Part shown: positions 41,844 to 43,278 of the stretch, one piece after another
Position numbering within the stretch: the stretch's first letter is position 1
How the letters are laid out: each line of letters starts with the position of its first letter
Assembly: GCA_017409005.1 (NCBI GenBank)
Contig: JAFQTP010000007.1
Span: 28,854-92,853 of the forward strand
Reading direction: 5' to 3'
Length of the DNA stretch: 64,000 nucleotides
DNA from: Clostridia bacterium
Lineage (GTDB): Bacteria > Bacillota > Clostridia > Christensenellales > UBA1242
The notes under the pieces: generated by a model
The model's database searches: none
The model's input: only the letters and a program-made list of their open reading frames with translations
Told to the model about the DNA's origin: nothing
Made by a program: the position numbers and the translations under genes

Positions 41844-41872
41844 TTGACAAAATTGTAATAAAACGATAATAT
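41844..41872 (+). promoter_or_regulatory. Sigma-A promoter for the ncRNA-RT unit
   Basis: TTGACA-17 bp-TAATAT directly after the upstream terminator (AAAAGGAAGCA/TGCTTCCTTTT); predicted TSS ~41879. Confidence 0.7.
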
Positions 41873-41878
41873 GTTAAT

Positions 41879-42016
41879 AGAAAGGAAAGTGAATTTTTAA
41901 TTATCACATCTGCAGTGGGGTGAAGCACGCATTAATTAATGGTTTTGCAGATAGCCGGTGTGTGTTTAGCCACGTAGCAATATTATTGCTTTCAAAGTAA
42001 TTTCCTTTCTTTTTTT
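41879..42016 (+). ncRNA. Candidate RT-associated structured RNA
   Basis: Closing stem AGAAAGGAAA/TTTCCTTTCT; inner stems ATCTGCA/TGCAGAT, CATT/AATG, GTG/CAC and AGCAAT/ATTGCT. Confidence 0.65.
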
Positions 42017-43225
42017 ATGGATATTTTAAGCGAATTATTAAATAAAGATAAGTGGAACGAGTTTTTAGAGTATAAACTAACAAAATCGCACTTAAACAAA
42101 ACAGAAGAAACTTTTTTAAAACAATATGTTGCTCAAGAAAAATATTTGAGCATAGCACAAAAAATAGATGCAGGGTCTTATGTTTTTTCTGCGCCCATAA
42201 AAACGCTTATAAACAAAAGCGGCTCAACAAAAAAACGCGCAGTATATAGTTTTTCGGAAGACGAAAACATTGTTTTAAAATTTATTTCGTTTTGTCTTTA
42301 TAAATACGATTATGTGTTTTGTCCAAGCACCTATGCTTTTAGGCGTAACATAACGGTTAAGCAGGCTTTTAATAACATTATTAAAAGTGGCGTTGATAAT
42401 AAGTTTTCTTATAAACTTGATATTTCTAACTATTTTAACAGCATTAATATTAATTTGCTTTTGCCAAAGTTAAAAGCTGTGCTTAATAAAGATGCTAGGT
42501 TATATGATTTACTAAAAACAATTTTAACCTTAAACAAGAGTGTTTATAATGGTGAGGTTATAACTGAAGAGCGTGGCGTTATGGCAGGAACACCAACATC
42601 AACATTTTTAGCAAACATATATTTGCTTGATTTAGACAACTATTTTTATAACGCTAATGTAACTTATGCTAGATATTCCGACGACATTATTGTGTTTGGC
42701 CAAAGCGAAACTGAGATAAATAAACACAAAGATTACATTTTAGAGTGTTTAACAAAAATGAATTTGGTTGTTAATCCGGCAAAAGTTTGTTTAACTAAAC
42801 CACATGAAAAGTGGACATATTTGGGGTTTAGCTATCATGATGGCGTTGTGGATTTGTCGGAAGTAACACTTAAAAAAATTAAAGATAAAATTAGGCGTAA
42901 GGCAAGGGCAATTTATAGATGGAAAGTTAAAAACCAAAAAGAAACTTTGCACGCAGCCAAGGTGCTTATAAGGGTGTTTAACAACAAATTTTATAGGCTT
43001 AACAACACCAAAGATTTAACTTGGAGTAAATGGTTTTTTCCAATTATTAACACATCAAACAGCCTTAAACTTATAGATAAGCACTTAGTGCAATATGTTA
43101 GGTTTTTATCTAGTGGAAAATTTACAAAACAAAACTATAACCTAACATATAAAAAAATAAAAACACTAGGCTATAAAAGTTTGGTGCACGAATATTATAA
43201 ATTTAGGCAAAACGAGCAAGTTTAA
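42017..43225 (+). CDS. Standalone reverse transcriptase (group II-like / unclassified)
   Basis: KKR, YAFR, KLDISNYFNSI, GVMAGTPTSTFLANIYL, YARYSDD and YLGF RT motifs. Confidence 0.93.
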   Translation: MDILSELLNKDKWNEFLEYKLTKSHLNKTEETFLKQYVAQEKYLSIAQKIDAGSYVFSAPIKTLINKSGSTKKRAVYSFSEDENIVLKFISFCLYKYDYVFCPSTYAFRRNITVKQAFNNIIKSGVDNKFSYKLDISNYFNSININLLLPKLKAVLNKDARLYDLLKTILTLNKSVYNGEVITEERGVMAGTPTSTFLANIYLLDLDNYFYNANVTYARYSDDIIVFGQSETEINKHKDYILECLTKMNLVVNPAKVCLTKPHEKWTYLGFSYHDGVVDLSEVTLKKIKDKIRRKARAIYRWKVKNQKETLHAAKVLIRVFNNKFYRLNNTKDLTWSKWFFPIINTSNSLKLIDKHLVQYVRFLSSGKFTKQNYNLTYKKIKTLGYKSLVHEYYKFRQNEQV

Positions 43226-43238
43226 AATATTAAAAGAA

Positions 43239-43278
43239 AAAAGTTTTACACAGCATTAAAGCAGGGTGTAAAACTTTT
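43239..43278. terminator. Bidirectional terminator
   Basis: AAAAGTTTTACAC...GTGTAAAACTTTT between convergent genes. Confidence 0.75.

Follow-up and report, generated by a model that had tools for sequence, protein, structure and literature searches.

A UG26 reverse transcriptase with an upstream RT-5 RNA in a Clostridia bacterium: a covarying, pseudoknotted RNA in a candidate DRT-like system

Introduction

The Class 2 UG reverse transcriptases (RTs) characterized so far each write a different unusual DNA. DRT2 (UG2), an RT with an ncRNA, performs rolling-circle cDNA synthesis that assembles a gene; DRT9 writes poly-dA, DRT10 writes 7-nt repeats, and Drt3a writes poly-GT.

DRT10 (UG17) consists of an RT, an ncRNA, and SLATT, and carries out telomerase-like tandem-repeat synthesis (bioRxiv 10.64898/2026.04.29.721553; 10.64898/2026.06.29.735271). 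Its template is a 10-nt single strand, and SL1, the basal stem of its RNA, is required for RNA stability (bioRxiv 10.64898/2026.04.29.721553). DRT9 (UG28) consists of an RT and an ncRNA and makes protein-primed poly-dA; the 3′ end of its RNA carries a second U-rich stretch (PMC12483538).

UG26 is a Class 2 UG/Abi family for which the available text of Mestre 2022 (PMC9226505) gives 35 members, a COG2852/YcjD-like neighbor in nine of those 35, and a defense association rated "inconclusive"; that text makes no mention of an RNA for UG26. The family has been classified and not characterized, and we found no functional study of it in the literature searched, nor any paper linking it to RT-5. RT-5 is one of the RNA motifs RT-1 to RT-19 of Weinberg 2017 (PMC5737381), which were speculated, in the available part of that paper, to belong to retrons or diversity-generating retroelements (DGRs).

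The locus described here lies in a 64,000-nt stretch of DNA from a Clostridia bacterium, called the window below. A sequence-only reading of the window had proposed that a stand-alone RT and an end-paired RNA in front of it formed a candidate undescribed ncRNA-RT system, with a layout known from retrons and from ncRNA-dependent defense RTs such as DRT2 and DRT9.

Results

Organization of the unit

The unit consists of a promoter-like site, an end-paired RNA of 138 nt (41879–42016), and the gene for an RT of 402 aa (Table 1). The earlier reading had called it self-contained, and the upstream terminator, promoter-like site, RT, and terminator-like repeat of its own were all found; every segment that the reading had listed was present where it had been placed. 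The TTGACA-17-TAATAT site was the best of seven promoter-like sites found in the scan, a number not above that in shuffled sequences (mean 8.2). Transcription is predicted to start at about 41879, where the closing helix P1 begins. The repeat downstream of the RT was not in the terminator scan, because its loop of 14 exceeds the scan's loop limit of 8.

Table 1 Positions of the unit's features in the window
Feature	Position	Strand	Remarks
FMN-reductase gene	41275–41811		Pfam FMN_red
Upstream terminator hairpin	41810–41835	+	11-pair stem, then T run; belongs to the FMN-reductase gene; left edge of the unit
Promoter-like TTGACA-17-TAATAT	41844–41872	+	10/12 consensus matches; consensus match only
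P1 5′ strand (closing helix), AGAAAGGAAA	41879–41888	+	All purines; perfect pairing with 42001–42010
P1a hairpin	41889–41907 (GTGA 41889–41892/TCAC 41904–41907)	+	93.7% paired; 3/4 pairs change both sides
Pseudoknot 5′ strand, ATCTGCA	41908–41914	+	Pairs with TGCAGAT 41946–41952; 99.5% paired
P2 domain	41915–41973	+	Rfam alignment and covariation; helices 90.8–94.8% paired
P2 basal helix	GTGG 41915–41918/CCAC 41970–41973	+	
P2 middle helix	41925–41932/41958–41965	+	
P2b inner hairpin	41941–41944/41953–41956	+	Loop 41945–41952 contains pseudoknot 3′ strand 41946–41952
P3 hairpin, AGCAAT/ATTGCT	41976–41981/41985–41990	+	77.2% paired; 7/7 pairs change both sides
J3/1 single strand	41991–42000	+	10 nt between P3 and P1 3′ strand; starts with conserved U(C/U)AAA
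P1 3′ strand (closing helix), TTTCCTTTCT	42001–42010	+	All pyrimidines
U run	42011–42016	+	Directly after P1; abuts start codon
Reverse transcriptase, 402 aa	42017–43225	+	UG26, Class 2 UG/Abi; YSDD at residues 220–223
Terminator-like inverted repeat of the RT	43240–43251/43266–43277, then T's to 43285	+	Right edge of the unit; read by eye

The arrangement was compared in assembled contigs only, from four runs of four studies; 20 of 24 sequencing runs contained the stretch or part of it, and none of the runs listed was an RNA run. Contigs X3 record 13, X5 record 22, and X6 record 25 run from the FMN-reductase gene through the RNA into the RT. No "go back" joint, the sign of a tandem-repeat cDNA, was seen, although assembled contigs are unable to reveal one. 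Five "skip" joints seen in the contigs were each in a single low-depth contig with short sides.

Family and features of the reverse transcriptase

Both components proved to have been catalogued already, and the designation "undescribed" was not upheld: going by sequence matches, the RT belongs to the named family UG26 (PMC9226505) and the RNA is Rfam RF03026, RT-5 (PMC5737381), each as given in the available part of its source. The PADLOC RT_UG26 profile matched the RT with 516.6 bits (E 8.9e-156), residues 1–398 aligning with profile positions 1–397 of 398, and the second-best profile, UG27, scored 113.1 bits; this assignment is one by profile scores. After UG26, the RT scored best against the Class 2 profiles UG27, UG4, UG17, and Drt9. 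RVT_1 was the sole domain found, with no fused domain, and the gene stands alone. The YSDD and YLGF motifs named in the earlier reading are both present. YSDD was found in all 118 homologs, in agreement with the definition of Class 2 as having an intact YxDD and no additional known domain (Mestre 2022, available text). Our set of at least 581 genome loci compares with the 35 members given in that text, and the RNA was present in every tested locus that had upstream DNA.

The AF2 model of the RT (pLDDT 91.4) had the full fingers-palm-thumb fold. It aligned with the GsI-IIC RT at TM 0.74–0.76 and with DRT9 (9vma) at TM 0.64, and in both sequence and fold the RT resembled group II intron RTs more closely than it did DRT9 or DRT2. 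Its C-terminal helix carries the motif E-[YF]-[YH]-K-[FY]. Tyrosine 378 was Y in 118 of 118 homologs; position 394 was not invariant (Y in 105, H in nine, F in three, and W in one).

The earlier reading had also set the RT apart from retron, DGR, CRISPR-associated, and intron RTs, and this was borne out: all NCBIfam scores lay below their cut-offs and the Rfam scan gave no intron RNA. Membership among the DGR and CRISPR-associated RTs was rejected on the profile and NCBIfam scores and the Rfam scan. The RT found here is neither of the kinds to which the RT motifs had been speculated to belong in the available part of Weinberg 2017 (PMC5737381).

Linkage of the RT-5 RNA to the reverse transcriptase

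The RNA matched Rfam RT-5 (RF03026) with 58.1 bits against a gathering cut-off of 45.7. The match, at 41904–42004, covered model positions 1–104 of 104 and ended 12 nt 5′ of the RT start at 42017; the same arrangement was found in 20 of 20 other loci, and RT-5 was above the Rfam cut-off in 20 of 20 loci tested. Both the full-length match and the location beside an RT gene agree with RT-5 as defined in the available part of its description. No other Rfam family matched the RNA in the Rfam scan. The 104-position model spans from the end of the P1a 5′ strand to inside the P1 3′ strand and therefore includes neither P1 nor P1a, and the structure line of the match has no pseudoknot.

All 84 homologous loci having upstream DNA carried the RNA with the RT. 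An extended RNA model gave exactly one match per locus, upstream and on the strand of the RT, in 84 of 85 sources; in the single source without a match (L063) the RT is cut at the contig start. The same model gave no further match in 917,923 bases. The distance from the model end to the RT start had a median of 11 nt. RT-5 and UG26 were found in the same five of 61 related genomes.

Structure of the RNA

Structure in the RNA was assessed in 72 distinct sequences. The perfect pairing of the P1 strands that the earlier reading had reported is a real and covarying helix: P1 was 94.4% paired, nine of its ten pairs change on both sides, and its 5′ strand was 97% purines. P1 was present in the minimum free energy fold of the 138-nt RNA, whose folding energy was −37.4 kcal/mol (z −3.34, with one of 200 shuffles as good). 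An ungapped helix with a score of at least 10 was found in this span in 64 of 74 homologous upstream windows, compared with four of 180 windows drawn at random from these loci. Over all helices, 92.1% of cells were paired, versus 46–48% with the partners slid, and in 39 of the 45 pairs both partners change. None of 500 shuffles reached the observed values; a conserved, covarying structure upstream of the homologs, a check set beforehand, was thereby found. P1, P1a, and P2 were also recovered independently by RNAalifold from a plain MAFFT alignment. We conclude that the closing helix P1 is genuine and covarying, and that it lies outside the Rfam RT-5 model.

The ATCTGCA and TGCAGAT segments had been read as part of a set of nested stems. 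The segments and their pairing are there, and the nesting is not: this pairing crosses P2, its 3′ strand being the loop of the inner hairpin, and it is therefore a pseudoknot. Five of its six pairs change on both sides in the 72 distinct sequences, and the helix was absent from the model that built the alignment. What these results add to the Rfam model is a covarying P1, which extends the RNA beyond it, and a covarying pseudoknot.

Other parts of the RNA were less constant. The P1a hairpin differed in length between homologs, and the palindrome CATTAATTAATG lies in a stretch whose length and sequence both varied among them. J3/1 was 9–12 nt long, mostly 10. After P1, at least four T's were found among the next seven nt in 67 of the 72 sequences, and in the window copy the U run possibly marks the 3′ end of the RNA. 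In many homologs the 3′ U tail is paired to a run of A's upstream. The RNA had been described as richer in GC than its surroundings; it is above the window value, by a slight margin only (0.34 vs. 0.30). The guanosine at 41889 does adjoin the closing stem, as had been noted, but its likeness to a branching G was lost, since it forms the first pair of P1a (G-C in 70 and G-U in two of the 72 sequences).

Partner gene, neighborhood, and distribution

No known effector domain was found near the RT within the window, which agrees with the earlier reading for this copy. That statement does not extend to the family, since a conserved gene of about 170 aa lies directly upstream in 65 of 81 homologous loci; in these 65 loci the RNA stands between two genes of one operon. 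The partner gene is missing from the window and from the whole genome of this copy. Because most of the UG26 family has the partner and this copy lacks it, the copy might be incomplete. Searches with the partner protein gave nothing meaningful in Pfam at E ≤ 1, no match among PDB sequences (best E 0.11), and none by Foldseek at E ≤ 0.001; the sole lead was a feature match to DUF2726 and DUF559 clusters in the Atlas (0.90 and 0.87).

The earlier reading had also suggested a resident function among ordinary metabolic genes. The neighbors at other loci were mostly ordinary (5′-nucleotidase, LUD-domain protein, and ABC ATPase). Here, the type I restriction genes HsdS and HsdM lie 3.3 kb upstream and the block downstream, 43928–47826, had no family match. 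The RT and RNA occurred in only five of the 61 related genomes, including two of nine other genomes of the genus, and a resident function is disfavored because the distribution is patchy. A 326-aa upstream gene was present in six of ten genus genomes. In genomes G009 and G005, none of the 18 other window proteins tested (32.6–51.8 kb) was found within the 12–16 kb examined, and a comparison with empty sites in genus genomes gave no clean insertion boundary.

UG26 occurs widely among Clostridia and Bacteroidales of the gut and rumen; among 80 genomes with the system, 49 were labeled Clostridia and 31 Bacteroidota. No tblastn match at E ≤ 1e-20 was found in 72,556 plasmid or 50,697 phage records, and the 243 pattern matches in IMG/VR included only one relative, a distant one (25% identity). 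The patchy distribution, the spread over Clostridia and Bacteroidota, and the nearby type I restriction genes argue that the UG26/RT-5 system is accessory.

Discussion

Proposed mechanism

The comparison supported a two-part ncRNA and RT unit of the DRT2/DRT9 kind. By analogy with DRT2, DRT9, DRT10, and Drt3a, the locus, a partner-less copy of the UG26 system, probably makes cDNA from its own cis-encoded RT-5 RNA, most likely for anti-phage defense. From the same analogy we infer how the unit would be expressed, where its RNA would end, and what would serve as template, primer, and product. The unit's own promoter would drive the RNA; much of the transcription would end at the U run to give a discrete ncRNA, and read-through would give the RT mRNA. 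The RT would bind the RT-5 RNA as both scaffold and template and would copy, over and over, a short single-stranded window that lies between the bases of two helices. This would yield a repetitive cDNA, for which one of the RT's own C-terminal tyrosines perhaps acts as primer, and the cDNA would serve an accessory conflict function, most likely against phage.

The best candidate for the template is J3/1, which in the 72 distinct sequences is a short unpaired stretch with a stem base on either side. A search for A-B-A′ microhomology gave a mean longest repeat of 3.24, versus 3.04 in cross-lineage swaps, and the only shared repeat found was a pair of (U)UC elements separated by about 10 nt. Because the repeats were no stronger than those in the swaps, it is the layout of the RNA that points to J3/1. 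A long coding template like that of DRT2 is unlikely, because the RNA is only about 138 nt and its sole sizeable variable loop differs in length.

We hold it possible, though doubtful, that UG26/RT-5 represents one more DNA-writing system, with a mechanism of its own, in which C-terminal-tyrosine priming, tandem repeats from J3/1, a functional P1, and a partner acting as effector or sensor all apply jointly. A tyrosine of the C-terminal helix would then prime synthesis, and the window of about 10 nt between P3 and P1 would yield a new tandem-repeat DNA. The homopurine:homopyrimidine P1 and the U tail would be a functional device and not just a clamp; they could act as a template boundary, a 3′-end triplex, or a long-range terminator. 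The partner of about 170 aa, pictured in such a system with an amphipathic helix at its N-terminus and a nuclease-like fold from which conserved catalytic residues are absent, would be the usual effector or sensor, and partner-less copies would act alone through their DNA product, as DRT9 does.

Alternative explanations

Synthesis of cDNA from RT-5 has to be weighed against a role for the RNA only as a cis-acting leader, in which P1 and the U run attenuate transcription or mask initiation of RT translation. A helix followed by a U run resembles an intrinsic terminator, and in most loci 0–12 nt separate the RT start from the end of the P1 3′ strand and its U run. In the window copy the start codon at 42017 sits 6 nt past P1 and has no Shine-Dalgarno sequence, so P1 could have a purely regulatory role. 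We nevertheless consider this explanation unlikely. A pseudoknotted core of 110 nt with invariant single-stranded nucleotides far exceeds what attenuation needs, the RNA lies between two genes of one operon in 65 of the 81 loci, and in all characterized Class 2 relatives the upstream RNA serves as both scaffold and template; moreover, leader and template roles are not mutually exclusive.

Still less likely, in our judgment, is that the RNA is a scaffold or activator only and that DNA synthesis by the RT is untemplated or templated by protein, as with Class 1 enzymes and Drt3b. Synthesis of both types is known in the UG/Abi lineage (review PMC13213688), and no convincing A-B-A′ template signature was found here, but UG26 is closest to the Class 2 profiles, and those Class 2 enzymes that have been studied to date copy an RNA template.

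A retron-like element, with the closing helix as a1/a2 and the adjacent guanosine priming msDNA through a 2′-5′ branch, is highly improbable despite the end-pairing helix and adjoining G upstream of the RT. The NCBIfam retron RT model NF038233 scored 60.7 bits against a cut-off of 235, the PADLOC retron-type RT profiles scored at most 72.6 bits against 516.6 for UG26, the guanosine is held in the conserved G-C pair of P1a, and there is no msd-like long hairpin. Least credible of all is an origin by decay of a group II intron, with the RT gene and the RNA as its remnants: the YLGF motif and the best solved-structure matches, which were group II intron RTs, would fit it, but TIGR04416 scored 109.1 bits, below its cut-off of 300, the Rfam scan of 41000–44000 (E up to 10) gave no intron RNA family, no RNA structure follows the RT, neither intron domains V/VI nor exon junctions were seen around the RT in homologs, hundreds of genomes conserve the intact ORF, and the RNA is a distinct covarying fold.

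Taken alone, the locus in the window is an ordinary instance of the UG26/RT-5 family. For the family, the analysis supplies the RNA partner of UG26, the full boundaries of the RNA, its pseudoknotted structure, a candidate template window, and a conserved protein partner, and it gives the orphan RNA family RT-5 a proposed function.

Comparison with known DRT systems

The unit resembles DRT2 in having a stand-alone RT with a structured RNA upstream. Membership in the DRT2 and DRT9 families was rejected on scores: NCBIfam Drt2 gave 66.5 bits against a cut-off of 390 and PADLOC Drt2 gave 70.3 bits, and PADLOC Drt9 gave 93.3 bits against 516.6 for UG26.

DRT9 is the nearest solved defense RT, with the fold similarity given above and a sequence E of 4.7e-22. 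Like DRT9, the unit has two parts with the ncRNA 5′ of the RT, a U-rich RNA 3′ end, and conserved C-terminal tyrosines. The two RNAs differ in fold, and unlike DRT9, RT-5 has no evident internal conserved U4 loop, its sole long U run being the 3′ tail.

The RT_UG17 profile of DRT10 scored 103.2 bits, compared with 516.6 for UG26, and the locus differs from DRT10 in having no SLATT gene, another gene order, and no clear A-B-A′ repeat. As in DRT10, a Class 2 RT is accompanied by an ncRNA in cis whose ends are joined by a basal stem; about 10 nt of single strand separate that stem from the last stem-loop, and the C-terminal helix bears hydroxyl residues.

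Identification of the reverse transcriptase and its RNA

The reverse transcriptase (RT) of 402 aa contained RVT_1 as its only Pfam domain (E 5.6e-22). It matched the PADLOC profile RT_UG26 over positions 1-397 of 398 (E 8.9e-156, 516.6 bits); the runner-up profiles were UG27 (113.1 bits), UG4 (109.5), UG17 (103.2), Drt9 (93.3), and Drt2 (70.3). It stayed below the cut-off of every NCBIfam model, as for group II RT (109.1 vs 300), Drt2 (66.5 vs 390), retron St85 (60.7 vs 235), and Drt3a (59.9 vs 200). An AlphaFold2 model made with 27 homologs was confident (pLDDT 91.4, pTM 0.85), and in Foldseek its closest match was the group II intron RT GsI-IIC (TM 0.74-0.76), followed by G2L4 and DRT9 (9vma, TM 0.64). 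A profile search of PDB sequences gave the same order (GsI-IIC 6.9e-28, DRT9 4.7e-22, DRT2 1.6e-10, Drt3a 6.7e-9) and contained no solved UG26 structure.

The non-coding stretch preceding the RT gene matched the whole Rfam model RF03026, "RT-5 RNA", at 41904-42004 (58.1 bits vs a cut-off of 45.7, E 4.9e-10); no other Rfam family reached its cut-off in 41000-44000. Mestre et al. 2022 (PMC9226505) placed UG26 among the Class 2 UG/Abi groups, giving it 35 members without a fused domain, 9 of which adjoin a COG2852/YcjD-like protein, and grading its association with defence as "inconclusive". The passages of that paper on UG26 mention no RNA, and "RT-5" and "Rfam" each occur 0 times in its main text. 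RT-1 to RT-19 are motifs located beside RT genes, which Weinberg et al. 2017 (PMC5737381) guessed to belong to retrons or DGRs. Because both halves were thus already catalogued, the sequence-only reading of this locus as an undescribed system is not upheld; its identity as a UG26 RT paired with its own RT-5 RNA is firm. In the literature searched, neither a function of UG26 nor RT-5 was reported beyond these two catalogue papers, and other papers or supplements may say more. The one relevant paper listed in a search on DRT11 to DRT13 concerns UG5.

The arrangement proposed from sequence (terminator, promoter-like site, RNA, RT, and the RT's own terminator) was borne out when the region was read; coordinates are collected in the table. 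The promoter-like site ranked first among the 7 found in a scan, a number of sites not above that in shuffles. The terminator of the RT has a loop of 14, and hence is absent from the output of the terminator scan, which had a loop limit of 8.

Features of the RT unit, its neighborhood, and partner genes (window positions, or positions in homologous UG26 loci designated L)
Feature	Position	Strand	Remarks
HsdS, specificity subunit (Methylase_S)	35959-36897	-	Pfam
HsdM, N6 methylase	36875-38740	-	Pfam
FMN-reductase gene	41275-41811		Upstream of unit; Pfam FMN_red
Terminator hairpin at end of FMN-reductase gene	41810-41835
Promoter-like site TTGACA-17-TAATAT	41844-41872		10/12 consensus matches
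Non-coding stretch (RNA)	41879-42016
RT ORF, 402 aa	42017-43225
Terminator-like inverted repeat and T run, end of unit	43240-43251/43266-43277		Read from sequence
dNMP-kinase-like P-loop gene	43284-43796		Convergent to RT; PHROG 139, E 1.2e-6
Partner gene, example loci	L012:239-754; L040:5318-5836; L043:5254-5754
Acutalibacteraceae loci with near-identical modules	L012, L013, L017-L020, L023, L025, L027, L028, L030-L032

Co-occurrence of the RT and RT-5

The genome of the window has a single copy each of the UG26 RT and RT-5. RT_UG26 (E<=1e-40) and RT-5 (above its own cut-off) were present in the same 5 of 61 related genomes (G000, G006, G008, G017, and G050), and were adjacent in each. The system is therefore accessory, and not the resident function that had been suggested.

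With each species represented by one genome, a scan gave at least 598 pattern matches, at least 581 of them confirmed. By title, the best 80 (L007-L086), chiefly of gut and rumen origin, comprised 49 Clostridia-type and 31 Bacteroidota MAGs. Collecting homologs and building a covariance model had been recommended as a check. The resulting model, R1 (137 positions, 39 pairs), was derived from 52 non-redundant upstream sequences, each cut back to the closing helix. Searched against both strands of 85 sources (917,923 bases), R1 matched upstream of the RT in 84; every match was the sole one in its source and on the same strand as the RT, and 16 came from loci outside the building set. The only source without a match was L063, whose RT is cut off at the contig start. 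All 20 loci tested with Rfam RT-5 scored above its cut-off. The gap between the R1 end and the RT start had a median of 11 nt (74 loci, with two negative values that reflect misassigned RT starts). It was 619 nt in one locus (L079:5250-7203), where a protein of 199 aa that carries SAP_new25 and DUF6434 domains (5405-6004) lies between the RT-5 RNA (5250-5381) and the RT (~6001 on).

Structure of the RNA

The end pairing noticed from sequence, here called P1, is real and covarying. Without use of a model, an ungapped helix (score of at least 10, span 95-175 nt) was found in 64 of 74 upstream windows, vs 4 of 180 random windows from the same loci. P1 strand sequences differed among lineages, giving at least six distinct complementary-strand pairs, and RNAalifold applied to a plain MAFFT alignment predicted P1 and the internal helices P1a and P2, with compensatory change in 20 of 24 pairs. 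Relative to Rfam, whose model starts past P1 and ends within the P1 3' strand, this helix is the chief new element.

Covariation was counted in a model-based alignment of 72 distinct sequences. Over the whole structure, 92.1% of cells were paired, vs 46-48% when partners were slid by 1-3 columns; both sides changed in 39 of 45 pairs, and the observed values were reached by 0 of 500 shuffles. The nested helices belonged to R1, so that their counts (P1, 94.4% paired with both-side change in 9 of 10 pairs; P3, the weakest, 77.2% paired) are biased towards the model, whereas the count for a pseudoknot (99.5% paired, both-side change in 5 of 6 pairs) is independent because the pseudoknot lay outside it. 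That pseudoknot is formed by ATCTGCA/TGCAGAT (41908-41914/41946-41952), previously taken for a stem enclosing nested stems: its 3' strand occupies the loop of P2b, the inner hairpin of P2, and the pairing crosses P2. The palindrome CATTAATTAATG, also read as a nested stem, sits in a stretch of variable length and sequence among homologs. G41889, which had been likened to the branching G of retrons, is not unpaired but forms the first pair of P1a (G-C in 70 of the 72 sequences, G-U in the other 2). The window RNA alone folded at -37.4 kcal/mol (z -3.34).

A 135-nt metagenome contig (run X18, record 4) covers the RNA only, from P1 to P1 (window 41878-42010), with 10 substitutions; its indels occur in the P1a hairpin and the variable loop alone. 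A related strain is its probable source. Its unitig ends are uninformative on the RNA ends.

The 5' strand of P1 was 97% purine (714 cells) and the 3' strand pyrimidine in both phyla, compared with 33% to 81% for other helices; this asymmetry was seen at window 41879-41888/42001-42010 and in columns 1-10/240-249 of alignment A4. Such a bias is not demanded by base pairing alone. Its conceivable roles are a weak rY:dR hybrid aiding a long-range terminator, a binding surface or template boundary, and triplex formation with the U tail. Immediately after P1 comes a U run (4 or more T in the next 7 nt in 67 of 72 sequences), which in many homologs is paired in part with A residues of a run upstream, extending P1 to 15-17 bp. 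J3/1, the strand between P3 and P1 (41991-42000 in the window), is the sole single-stranded segment that lies between two helix bases and is conserved in length; it is 9-12 nt long, mostly 10, and starts with U(C/U)AAA.

Genomic neighborhood and partner protein

Neighbors were not conserved within the clade of the window (L003-L011), except in G008, a genome of the same genus, where the same 326-aa gene again precedes the RT. HsdS and HsdM, of a type I restriction-modification system, are encoded 3.3 kb upstream of the RT unit, and the search of neighbors identified no HsdR. Five ORFs of 159-276 aa in the block 43928-47826 had no match in Pfam, PADLOC, or PHROGs. In the same-genus locus L005, homologs of just two members of window 43284-47826, the kinase-like gene and the 276-aa ORF, adjoin the RT. 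Neighbors in other UG26 loci were mostly ordinary genes. Searches of plasmid, phage, and viral-contig collections gave no close relatives.

A conserved same-strand gene lay directly upstream in 65 of 81 UG26 loci, and in 59 of those 65 it was an ORF of 140-215 aa ending at most 500 nt from the RT start. Its stop codon was 9-14 nt before P1 in the loci checked (L012, L040, and L043); the usual order is thus partner-RNA-RT. The partner protein begins with an amphipathic N-terminus, continues through a low-complexity linker, and ends in an alpha/beta domain (AlphaFold2, pLDDT >90 for residues 80-171). Pfam, PDB-sequence, and Foldseek searches gave no matches, and an Atlas match to DUF2726/DUF559 was the sole lead. 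F, Y, and R make up its invariant residues, none of which is acidic; judged from this conservation, the partner, if nuclease-like in fold, may therefore be non-catalytic. It was missing from the window, its clade, and L029, L035, L062, and L065, and its profile found nothing in the whole 1.21-Mb genome (97.6% complete).

One subgroup of Bacteroidales encodes, upstream of the partner gene, a protein of 711 aa whose N-terminus is GTPase-like (L014:2258-4393, L036:1384-3519, L043:2975-5110); in L026:17-2110 a protein of this type and the partner share one open frame. Near-identical partner-RNA-RT modules with identical upstream regions occurred in 13 species-level Acutalibacteraceae genomes, several on short contigs of 2.8-7 kb, a pattern suggestive of recent spread or of a context that is repeated or mobile.

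Comparison with characterized Class 2 systems

The CHARACTERISED relatives compared here are the characterized Class 2 systems, in which template boundaries are reported to be set by geometry, the template to be reset by A-A' microhomology, and priming to be done by the RT C-terminus (bioRxiv 10.64898/2026.06.29.735271); a short review is a further source (PMC13213688). The DRT10 template is described as a 10-nt single strand, ACUUAUUACU, and stability of its RNA as dependent on the basal stem SL1 (bioRxiv 10.64898/2026.04.29.721553). For DRT9, the template is reported to be a U-rich loop and the primers C-terminal tyrosines; a second U-rich stretch at the 3' end of its RNA is dispensable (PMC12483538).

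The microhomology expected of a Class 2 template was not demonstrable in RT-5, the mean longest repeat being 3.24 vs 3.04 for swaps between lineages and 2.52 for shuffles. The C-terminal helix of the RT (389-400 in the model) carries tyrosines; among 118 homologs, Y394 was tyrosine in 105, Y393 in 89, and Y378 in all 118. Hence a templating role for J3/1 and priming by protein are features that we infer. With moderate confidence, we regard a Class 2 mechanism as the most likely: the RT-5 RNA would act as a scaffold and provide a short reiterated template for the RT, the product would be repetitive cDNA, and priming by protein is possible. A defence role for the whole UG26 family is plausible but unproven. 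In its layout RT-5 fits the logic of the Class 2 systems: P3 and P1 would be the two anchors of a template window, for which J3/1 is the candidate.
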